The position numbers and the translations under genes are program-made. The notes under the pieces are model-generated. The model worked only from the letters and a program-made list of their open reading frames with translations, was not told the DNA's origin and ran no database searches. 64,000 nt of DNA from Granulosicoccus sp. (GTDB taxonomy: Bacteria > Pseudomonadota > Gammaproteobacteria > Granulosicoccales > Granulosicoccaceae): the NCBI GenBank assembly GCA_045110515.1, contig JBGCGD010000004.1, positions 89,033 to 153,032 of the forward strand. The letters run 5' to 3'. This document shows positions 11,349 through 14,075 of the stretch, piece by piece. Positions within the stretch are counted from its first letter, which is position 1. Each line of letters starts with the position of its first letter.

Positions 11349-12134
11349 ATGGCAGAATTTAAGCTCCCAGCAAATTCCATCGTTAAACAAAACGGCAAAC
11401 ACTTTGCGGCCCCTGATGGCGCAACAAATACCCGGCGTTTTAAAGTCTATCGATACGATCCCGATAGCGGTGAGAACCCACGCGTCGATTCGTTTGATGT
11501 TGACGTTGATAACTGCGGCCCGATGATCCTAGATGCCATCATCAAGATCAAAAGTGAAATGGACTCTACGCTAACCTTCAGGCGCTCTTGCCGAGAGGGC
11601 ATTTGCGGCTCCTGTGCCATGAACATAGGTGGTACCAATGGCCTGGCATGCACAACTGCTATTGCTGATATCGAAGGCGACATCACGATATACCCTCTTC
11701 CGCACCAGCCTATCATTAAAGATCTGGTATCCGATCTCACCAATTTCTATGCTCAATATGCATCAATAGAACCATGGCTGAAGTCAGATACTCCTGCGCC
11801 ACCGGATCGTGAGCGTCTGCAATCACCAGAGGATCGTGAAAAAATCGATGGCGCCTACGAGTGCATTCTCTGTGCATGCTGCTCAACAAGTTGCCCAAGT
11901 TATTGGTGGAACCCTGATCGTTACCTAGGACCTGCTGCGTTACTGGCCTCCTATCGTTGGCTCGTCGATAGTCGCGATGATGCAACAGGCGAACGTCTAG
12001 ACGACCTAGAAGATCCATTCAAGCTCTACCGCTGTCATACCATCATGAACTGCGCCCAGGTTTGCCCAAAAGGCCTTAACCCAGCCAAGGCAATTGCAGA
12101 AACTAAAAAGATGCTTGTAAAACGACGTCTGTAG
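11349..12134 (+). CDS. sdhB: Succinate dehydrogenase iron-sulfur subunit
   Basis: [22 protein letters not shown] and [12 protein letters not shown] cysteine clusters. Confidence 0.98.
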
Positions 12135-12150
12135 GCTCAACGATATCCAG

Positions 12151-12405
12151 ATGAGCACAAAGACGGCTAATATCGCAAAACTACGGTGGAGATGCCGTAG
12201 AGGTATGCGCGAGTTGGATGAAGCTATGCGTGCTTATCTGGATAACCACTATGAAGGCGCTTCAACACAAGAGCGCCTGTTGTTTGAAGAATTGCAGGAG
12301 ATGCAAGACCCGGAGCTATTCCAGCTTGTAAGTGGTAAGGCCAAGGAGGCCCGTTATCAAAACATTCTCGACAAAATGTCGCTCAGCATGGGTAGCCGCT
12401 CCTAA
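12151..12405 (+). CDS. sdhE: FAD assembly factor SdhE
   Basis: LRWRCRRGMRELD motif. Confidence 0.93.
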   Translation: MSTKTANIAKLRWRCRRGMRELDEAMRAYLDNHYEGASTQERLLFEELQEMQDPELFQLVSGKAKEARYQNILDKMSLSMGSRS

Positions 12406-12829
12406 ATTTAGCAGGCTCTACTGTACAGTTTTAGTAGTAAGTTCCGCCTGCTCACTGTGGGCAACTACCATTAGCGGTTTGCATCCAGTGCTTCATTGTT
12501 TGCTCAGCGCAAGCCTGCTGGTGTCTGTATCTTGGCAAATTATTCAAGCCAGACGCCTCACGTTAATCACACATGATGTTGACAACAACGTCTGGACAAT
12601 TACTGCTAAGGCAAATTTACCCCGTAACGGGCATTTAGTTAGATCGGGTTACCGTTGCAGCTTTCTCGTTATTTTGGTTATCCAATCTGACAACCATCAC
12701 TGCCACTACGTGCCGTTGTGGCGAGACCAAATCAGCGATTCGGAATTCAGCTACCTACACTACCAACTTCTCTATAACACGGTGAATCCCACGTCAAAAT
12801 GGACAGCCGTCTTTTCTAAACGCGCTTAG
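12332..12829 (+). CDS. YgfX/CptA-like membrane protein (start uncertain)
   Basis: Two N-terminal hydrophobic helices; C-terminal VPLWRDQISDSEFSYL resembles the YgfX (l)wpDs..e.fr.L pattern; follows sdhE as in enterobacteria. Confidence 0.6.
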   Translation: MVRPRRPVIKTFSTKCRSAWVAAPKFSRLYCTVLVVSSACSLWATTISGLHPVLHCLLSASLLVSVSWQIIQARRLTLITHDVDNNVWTITAKANLPRNGHLVRSGYRCSFLVILVIQSDNHHCHYVPLWRDQISDSEFSYLHYQLLYNTVNPTSKWTAVFSKRA

Positions 12830-12911: not shown

Positions 12912-13652
12912 GTGAAACAACCAATCTATTTGGGCGTAAACGTTGACCATGTGGCAGCGGTAAGACAAGCGAGAGGGCTAAGCTACCCAGACCCTGTCCA
13001 TGCTGCCTTGCAAGCAGAGCTTGCCGGTGCTGACAGCATCACCATGCACCTACGGGCGGACAGACGACATATCCAAACCCATGACGTAGAAAGGTTTGCT
13101 GCAAGTGGCCAAACAAAGCTCAACATTGAAATGGCCGCAACAGCGGAAATGCTTGAAATCGCACAAAGAATAAAACCTCACACGGTCTGTATCGTCCCCG
13201 AAAACCGTCAAGAAATAGATACCATTCGAGGGGTAGACGTCACAGCCAAAAAAGATGAACTCTCCGACTTTATTGATGCATTGCAGTCCGCTGGCATTCA
13301 AAGTTCTATTTTCATCGATCCTGATGAATCACAAGTAGAAGCCGCTGCGCGAATTGGAGCGCCCTGTGTTCAATTACACACGGGCTATTATACCGACACG
13401 CAAACTCATATAGATCTCAGCACTGAGTTATCGAGAATCGTGACATCAAGCGAGTACGCTTTCAGCTTAGGCTTAATGGTTAATGCGGGGCATGGCTTGC
13501 ATTATGACAATGTGCAAGCCATCGCAGAAATTGAAACTATCAACGAACTACGCGTCGGACATAGTTTAATCACCAGGGCACTTTACTGGGGCCTTCCGAC
13601 AGCAACCAGTAAAATGAAACGACTCATGGTCGAAGCCCGGCATCGATCCTAA
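12912..13652 (+). CDS. pdxJ: Pyridoxine 5'-phosphate synthase (divergent active site)
   Basis: LGVNVDH, YPDPV, HLRxDRRHI, NIEMA and NAGHGL; upstream of acpS. Several conserved residues are substituted (see findings). Confidence 0.88.
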   Translation: MKQPIYLGVNVDHVAAVRQARGLSYPDPVHAALQAELAGADSITMHLRADRRHIQTHDVERFAASGQTKLNIEMAATAEMLEIAQRIKPHTVCIVPENRQEIDTIRGVDVTAKKDELSDFIDALQSAGIQSSIFIDPDESQVEAAARIGAPCVQLHTGYYTDTQTHIDLSTELSRIVTSSEYAFSLGLMVNAGHGLHYDNVQAIAEIETINELRVGHSLITRALYWGLPTATSKMKRLMVEARHRS

Positions 13653-13694: not shown

Positions 13695-14075
13695 ATGATT
13701 GCAGGAATTGGTGTTGACCTAGCAACTATCAGCAGAATCGAACAAGCCCATGTTCGTTTCGGTGAACGGTTTGCTAAGCGTATATTAAACCCACTTGAAT
13801 GGGACGAGTACTTAGACCATCAGTCCCCTATCCGCTTTCTGGCGAAACGTTTCGCCGTGAAAGAAGCTTCAGTTAAAGCGCTGGGAACGGGCGAACGAGC
13901 AGGTGTACTACTTAGGGACTTTTACCTTAAACACGATAGTCTTGGAAAACCGATACTTCAGGTTAGCGGTGAAGCAAAGAAGCGCTGCGAACAACAAGGC
14001 ATCAAACATTTCTGGGTGAGCATAACCGACGAAGGCGACACTGTAGCCGCCTTCGTCATCTTAGAACTGGGTTAA
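13695..14075 (+). CDS. acpS: Holo-ACP synthase
   Basis: GIGVDL, LAKRFAVKEASVKALGTG, GKP and SITDE motifs. Confidence 0.94.
   Translation: MIAGIGVDLATISRIEQAHVRFGERFAKRILNPLEWDEYLDHQSPIRFLAKRFAVKEASVKALGTGERAGVLLRDFYLKHDSLGKPILQVSGEAKKRCEQQGIKHFWVSITDEGDTVAAFVILELG

Follow-up and report, generated by a model that had tools for sequence, protein, structure and literature searches.

The question raised by this locus is whether a pdxJ gene with a remodelled active site still encodes a PNP synthase, the enzyme that condenses DXP with 3-amino-2-oxopropyl phosphate in vitamin B6 synthesis, or is kept for another role. The gene occupies positions 12912-13652 on the + strand of the window (the whole stretch of 64,000 nucleotides analysed here), starts with GTG and encodes 246 amino acids. 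A first-pass annotation, made from the letters alone, had described it as a full-length PdxJ with several substituted active-site residues, and proposed a pseudo-enzyme or a neofunctionalised synthase. Its full length is borne out by a match to the whole PF03740 profile at 301 bits (cut-off 24.5), compared with 328-341 bits for canonical Granulosicoccus copies. The protein also passes TIGR00559 (278 bits, cut-off 193) and NF003625 (323 bits, cut-off 190), and falls short on NF003623, the NCBIfam equivalog that it matches best (330.2 bits, cut-off 347). Because it passes the general models, annotation pipelines will name it PNP synthase. The AlphaFold2 model is a confident (beta/alpha)8 TIM barrel (pLDDT 94.2) whose lowest confidence falls in the lid loop (residues ~100-113), and the top 15 Foldseek matches of this model are all PdxJ structures (TM 0.89-0.95). 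With E. coli-type PdxJ (EC 2.6.99.2; PF03740, TIGR00559; 1ho1, 1m5w, 6rg0) it shares about 55% identity without gaps, the barrel (TM 0.94) and the linkage to acpS. Unlike that type, it carries E153Q, T102D, E104I, G105R and N213R, all at sites whose conservation in the family is 74-97%, misses the best equivalog cut-off and is not the sole pdxJ of its genome.

The gap-free alignment to E. coli PdxJ (1m5w/1ho1), in which window residue n corresponds to E. coli residue n-1, allows each change to be read from its codon on the + strand. In the lid (loop 4), positions 102-105 read D-T-I-R against T-T-E-G in the family (13218-13229), with T102D at 13218-13220, E104I at 13224-13226 and G105R at 13227-13229. 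Position 153 is Gln (CAA, 13371-13373), position 213 is Arg (CGC, 13551-13553; ELNIGH to ELRVGH) and position 48 is Ala (GCG, 13056-13058). All of these had been called in the first-pass annotation and lie at the codons given there, and the eight residues that it listed as retained (N9, H12, R20, H45, R47, H52, E72 and H193) are indeed present, together with D11, G194, G215 and H216. Whether such substitutions are common in the family was assessed with the best 149 hits outside the query's own cluster, drawn from 1.84 billion cluster representatives and sharing at most 50% pairwise identity. Gln is found at position 153 in none of the 149 representatives (Glu in 144), Ile at position 104 in none (Glu in 141) and Arg at position 213 in none (Asn in 110, Ser in 16, His in 8), while position 102 holds Thr in 142, Ser in four, Ile in one and Asp in one, and position 105 holds Gly in 133 and Arg in one. 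E48A, which had been listed alongside these changes, is not diagnostic: position 48 is Glu in 125 representatives and Ala in five, and it is also Ala in a canonical single-copy Granulosicoccus (G015) and Pro in the alphaproteobacterial type. Since E48 is less conserved and Ala occurs in a canonical single-copy relative, this change carries little weight. The rarity expected of T102D and E153Q thus stood up and that of E48A did not; judged from the family sample, the substitutions of the window PdxJ are more than chance variation.

These positions fall unevenly over the active site. The acid/base residues H45, E72 and H193 are all present, and what we call the first phosphate pocket (N9, R20 of the neighbouring subunit, G194, G215 and H216) is complete. 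The DXP-phosphate site with its closing lid (R47, H52, T102, T103, E104 and G105) is not intact, owing to T102D, E104I and G105R, and Gln stands in place of E153. Following UniProt and the E. coli crystal structures, we take T102, T103, H52 and R47 to be the residues of the DXP phosphate and R20, G194, G215 and H216 those of the second phosphate, with N9 in the same pocket; E153 is annotated as the transition-state stabiliser. The conservation counts are independent of these roles. By homology the window protein belongs to the PdxJ family, but it lacks two defining features of a functional PNP synthase, namely the lid with its DXP-phosphate site and E153, and on present evidence we would not assign EC 2.6.99.2 to it. 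Several other 50%-cluster representatives (P0201, P0206, P0225, P0236, P0242 and P0266) also deviate at catalytic positions, for example with R47H/E72K/H193Q in a fused form of 397 amino acids, or with N9S/H52Y/E72A/T102S/E153I; these may be further altered PdxJ lineages or artefacts of gene calling.

The surroundings of the gene identify it. Upstream on the + strand lies a conserved context of sdhB, sdhE and a gene for a YgfX/CptA-like membrane protein (11349-12829, from ORFs and profile matches), and 42 nt downstream lies acpS, encoding holo-ACP synthase (13695-14075, +; PF01648, TIGR00516). The order sdhB-sdhE-ygfX-pdxJ-acpS is common to canonical and altered copies across Granulosicoccus, for which reason we treat them as positional orthologs. 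The window gene is therefore the native, acpS-linked pdxJ of the genus, of gammaproteobacterial type. Within 12151-12829, sdhE (PF03937) overlaps by 74 nt with a 165-aa ORF that bears a weak likeness to the CptA/YgfX membrane toxin (PF07254, 22 bits, below cut-off), and this sdhE-ygfX pair directly 5' of pdxJ is conserved across the genus. An Rfam search around pdxJ gave no match at E<=0.1 and promoter and terminator consensus scans gave nothing above chance level, so that an explanation by an RNA element, promoter or terminator was dropped.

The key to the explanation is a second pdxJ, absent from the first-pass annotation, which had proposed searching for one. The assembly from which the window comes (G000, a seaweed-associated Granulosicoccus MAG, 98% complete) carries it on another contig (C3:79675-80394). 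Its product scores 355 bits on the NF003626 equivalog (cut-off 222), and its nearest solved structure is 6w6a from Stenotrophomonas maltophilia; it therefore represents the alphaproteobacterial/Xanthomonadales type, here called type II, which is of the same family and fold as the window protein and keeps the catalytic residues. The type-II protein shares 78% identity with the PdxJ proteins of Pseudahrensia aquimaris and a Rhizobiaceae MAG (Rhizobiales type) and about 28-30% with the native copy, from which we argue that the gene was acquired horizontally from Alphaproteobacteria. H45, E72, H193, T102, E153 and all other positions invariant in the subfamily are intact in the copy of this MAG, and the five named residues are kept in 29/29 Granulosicoccus type-II copies. 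The MAG also has pdxA, pdxH and dxs, and a search for PdxS found none. Type II is likely to be the working PNP synthase of this genome. Contamination of the MAG as the source of the second copy was ruled out, as a complete genome (G041) has the two copies together on its one chromosome of 7.78 Mb; in addition, type II is the only copy in another complete genome (G020). In group-A genomes (the native-copy group of the window, defined below), type-II pdxJ starts 5 nt after a gene for an NrfD/DmsC-like membrane subunit, itself preceded by a DmsB-like 4Fe-4S gene, and is followed by a YceI-like and then a sulfatase-like gene (C3:78175-81894 in the MAG; locus L002:774-3685).

A survey of 48 Granulosicoccus species genomes, in which the loci were read and 23 active-site positions tabulated, relates the state of the native copy to the presence of the second one. 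Native copies without deviation at the 23 positions were classed as canonical and those with four or more deviations as altered (three in one contig-end fragment). Canonical native copies were found in 19 genomes, 17 of which have no type II; altered copies were found in 20, of which 18 have type II; and in the eight genomes where no native copy was found, type II is the only PdxJ. At the same locus in sister species, then, the native gene is mostly canonical without a second copy, and altered or deleted with one. A phylogenetically independent-pairs test of type-II presence against native state gave 4:0:2 (for:against:uninformative), a result in the expected direction but, with so few pairs, not significant (p=0.125). 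In the four readable loci without a native copy (G020, G001, G007 and G002), a clean deletion has removed pdxJ from the interval between ygfX and acpS, and acpS is still in place and intact. No PdxS was found in G020, which is complete, or in G001, and G020 keeps pdxA; therefore type II must be able to supply PNP alone. Lineages that deleted the native gene can do without it, and any new function is thus not essential everywhere. Together with the rarity of the substitutions, the second copy and the dN/dS values given below, these sister loci support the general form of the first-pass claim, that the window gene probably does not encode an ordinary PNP synthase.

Two genomes with an altered copy and no detected type II (G048, 92% complete; G061, 89%) both keep pdxA; at these levels of completeness, roughly one missed type-II copy would be expected. 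These two and G047, all incomplete assemblies, have pdxA and no type-II pdxJ was found in them, and of all group-A copies that of G048 is the most degenerate (H52Y, H155S, H193Q, E153Q). If type II were truly absent, the three would have pdxA and no evident working PdxJ. Reciprocal decay, in which type II would degenerate where the native copy is canonical (G004 and G059), was not seen: their type-II proteins have six and two changes, respectively, at 100 invariant type-II columns, none of them catalytic. Outside the genus dual pdxJ is rare, with eight cases in 249 PdxJ-bearing genomes among 300 class-level genomes searched; this tally takes in the unpublished G086, G164, G319 and G309, all of them without a second copy. 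G022 (L032) and G040 (L045), the latter from another family of the class, have as their sole PdxJ a third variant that shares 44-45% identity with type II; it has H12K and, at position 48, Gln in G022 and Pro in G040. In G022 acpS was not detected between ygfX and a GH16 gene. A canonical subclade (L012, L015, L019, L050, L051, L052 and L056) has no acpS directly 3' of pdxJ (tblastn, 1e-5), where it may have moved or diverged. All altered native copies have acpS downstream.

We lean, by a narrow measure of confidence, towards the reading that xenologous displacement freed the native copy from PNP synthesis and that it has been retained in a different role. Against this it could be supposed that the window pdxJ is a dying relic whose frame stays open for acpS expression alone, through polarity or translational coupling. 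The short gap to acpS, in which a scan detected no terminator-like site, would suit such coupling. However, dN/dS of the altered native copy, calculated in species pairs with unsaturated dS (dS is saturated at the depth of the stem branches), is 0.034 in G000-G042, 0.034 in G011-G043, 0.027 in G016-G063, 0.012 in G056-G063, 0.035 in G045-G023 and 0.026 in G056-G055. The same pairs give 0.031-0.083 for type II and 0.05-0.09 for acpS, so that the supposed relic evolves under tighter constraint than the gene it would serve, and one canonical native pair gives 0.036. The most diverged altered group (group E below) is looser, with dN of 0.21 vs 0.13 for type II. Furthermore, all 78 altered sequences are full length, and acpS stays intact where pdxJ was deleted. 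Constraint on the protein sequence is as strong in the altered native copies as in working PdxJ; the gene is not decaying, and the relic explanation, which we regard as highly improbable, is rejected by these dN/dS values.

What the altered copies have kept and lost bears on the role that they might now play. In a combined set of the genus sequences and their 120 closest database homologues, 83 sequences have no deviation, and are canonical by that definition, three have one to three deviations and 78 are altered. The altered sequences were sorted by fixed signatures into five groups, each of which is, in the tree, a well-supported clade with a long stem (0.09-0.5 substitutions per site) and short internal branches. 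Group A, to which the window protein belongs (n=18), is marked by E153Q (18/18), N213R (17/18) and T15A (17/18); group B (n=37) by H155N and N213G (both 37/37), E104V (35/37) and E48K (30/37); group C, which includes G. antarcticus (n=16), by D11N, E72Q and N213T (all 16/16) and H45Q (14/16); and group D (n=5) by E72Q, H155N and T103A (all 5/5) and H45G (4/5). Group E consists of two strongly diverged sequences. The replacement at position 213 (R, G, T or S) thus differs by group. In groups A and B, H52 and R51 are often lost and the lid (102-105) is hypervariable; its positions are invariant in the 83 canonical relatives, although the latter were themselves sorted by these same residues. R20, G106, G215 and H216 are essentially invariant in all groups, and N9, D49 and G194 nearly so.

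Alternatively, the window PdxJ might still be a working PNP synthase, that is, a redundant or condition-specific isozyme whose substitutions only lower or tune its efficiency while the imported copy adds capacity. With H45, E72, H193, D11, H12, R47 and H52 retained, residual or altered PNP synthesis is possible. The protein has the H45/E72/H193 triad and the greater part of the binding residues, the cut-offs of TIGR00559 and NF003625 are passed, all catalytic residues are kept in group B, and G048 and G061 have pdxA with no type II detected. However, E153Q and T102D occur in none and one of the 149 family members, respectively, and lid positions that are near-invariant elsewhere, type II included, are hypervariable only in these genomes. 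Group-A relatives went on to lose H193 (5/18) and H52 (10/18), and both H45 and E72 are replaced in groups C and D. Moreover, a dN/dS of 0.03 alongside active-site change would be unexpected for mere redundancy, as would the deletion of the native copy in other lineages. We consider a retained isozyme unlikely.

The opposite extreme is a purely non-catalytic pseudoenzyme, in which the barrel or its oligomer would serve as a scaffold, a sensor or a carrier of B6 metabolites and the active-site residues would drift. In its favor, some changes are isosteric replacements of acid by amide (E153Q in the window protein; D11N, H45Q and E72Q being the group-C changes put with it), the phosphate pocket of R20, G194, G215 and H216 is invariant in nearly all altered copies, and the state of the active site differs between groups, as it would if catalysis were irrelevant. 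Yet both H45 and E72 are kept in 54/55 sequences of groups A and B, and the group signatures are fixed at overall identities of 63-80%, which suggests that the pocket is still under constraint and not drifting. This explanation, too, seems improbable to us.

Returning to displacement followed by a new role, the events might have run as follows. An ancestor would have gained a second pdxJ of the alphaproteobacterial type, which took over the condensation of DXP and 3-amino-2-oxopropyl phosphate to PNP, and the native copy would then have been freed from this task. In the group-A lineage E153Q, N213R and T15A would have become fixed, and the conserved lid with which PdxJ clamps the DXP phosphate (T102, T103, E104 and G105, and H52 in relatives) would have been lost. 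With a lid that no longer closes on the DXP phosphate and without the carboxylate at position 153, the native protein would have lost efficient PNP synthesis, and its remaining pocket could still bind some small phosphorylated molecule. Its present role may be a reaction with a different carbonyl partner substrate, or that of a ligand-binding protein, and would draw on the phosphate pocket, together with the His/Glu core in groups A and B. The TIM-barrel fold, the first phosphate pocket and, in most group members, the His45/Glu72 core have been kept, and the protein has since evolved under purifying selection as strong as that on a working PdxJ.

This course of events seems to have been taken more than once. 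The synteny pdxJ2-yceI-sulfatase, common to groups A-D, G002 and G046, indicates a single integration of type II in their common ancestor. Type II lies in other contexts in ten genomes (G004, G059, G020, G001, G007, G053, G005, G049, G018 and G022), and alphaproteobacterial sequences are nested among the Granulosicoccus type-II sequences in the tree; because of this nesting, at least two or three acquisitions must be assumed. In a proxy tree of SdhA+SdhB the group E lineage is separate from groups A-D, so that the native copy was remodelled after an acquisition on at least two occasions, and the main clade alone holds four different outcomes. Note that deep nodes are weakly supported and that G004 is placed differently by the gene tree and by the proxy tree; the order of events, as we would reconstruct it, rests on such nodes.

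A precedent in the same pathway is PdxA2, a PdxA paralog that takes part in the breakdown of organic acids and not in making PLP, and that pipelines nevertheless name as a B6 biosynthesis enzyme (PMC9997740). PdxA2 is an old paralog of known activity, whereas in Granulosicoccus the positional ortholog itself changed after the arrival of a xenolog. In the same comparative survey pdxJ counts as a well-annotated signature gene of the DXP-dependent B6 pathway, with a median of one copy per genome, and those of its passages that concern the pathway discuss PdxA2 as the problematic paralog and do not mention an altered PdxJ (PMC9997740). A search of the accessible literature found no paper linking PdxJ to a pseudoenzyme or moonlighting role. 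What is new here is displacement by another PdxJ, a remodelling centred on the lid and the presence within one genus of all stages of xenologous gene displacement: native copy only, both copies, native copy remodelled and native copy deleted. Several differently remodelled lineages are available in the genus, and the cultured G. antarcticus, with a complete genome, carries both copies.

For the organisms themselves, the annotation as PNP synthase is probably wrong in about 40% of Granulosicoccus species, which affects the vitamin exchange predicted between seaweed-associated bacteria and their hosts. The question is what selected function keeps the PdxJ barrel once B6 synthesis is no longer required of it. 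Based on at least two independent acquisitions of foreign pdxJ, the keeping of the native gene under strong purifying selection and four or five active-site remodellings, it is tempting to speculate that the PdxJ barrel has a second, PNP-independent function that shows itself each time B6 synthesis passes to another enzyme, an idea that we hold to be possible but doubtful. If it is true, altered PdxJ proteins would constitute a new class by function, whether they bind metabolites, serve in regulation or act as enzymes on a new substrate, and pdxJ would be an unreliable signature gene for B6 prototrophy.
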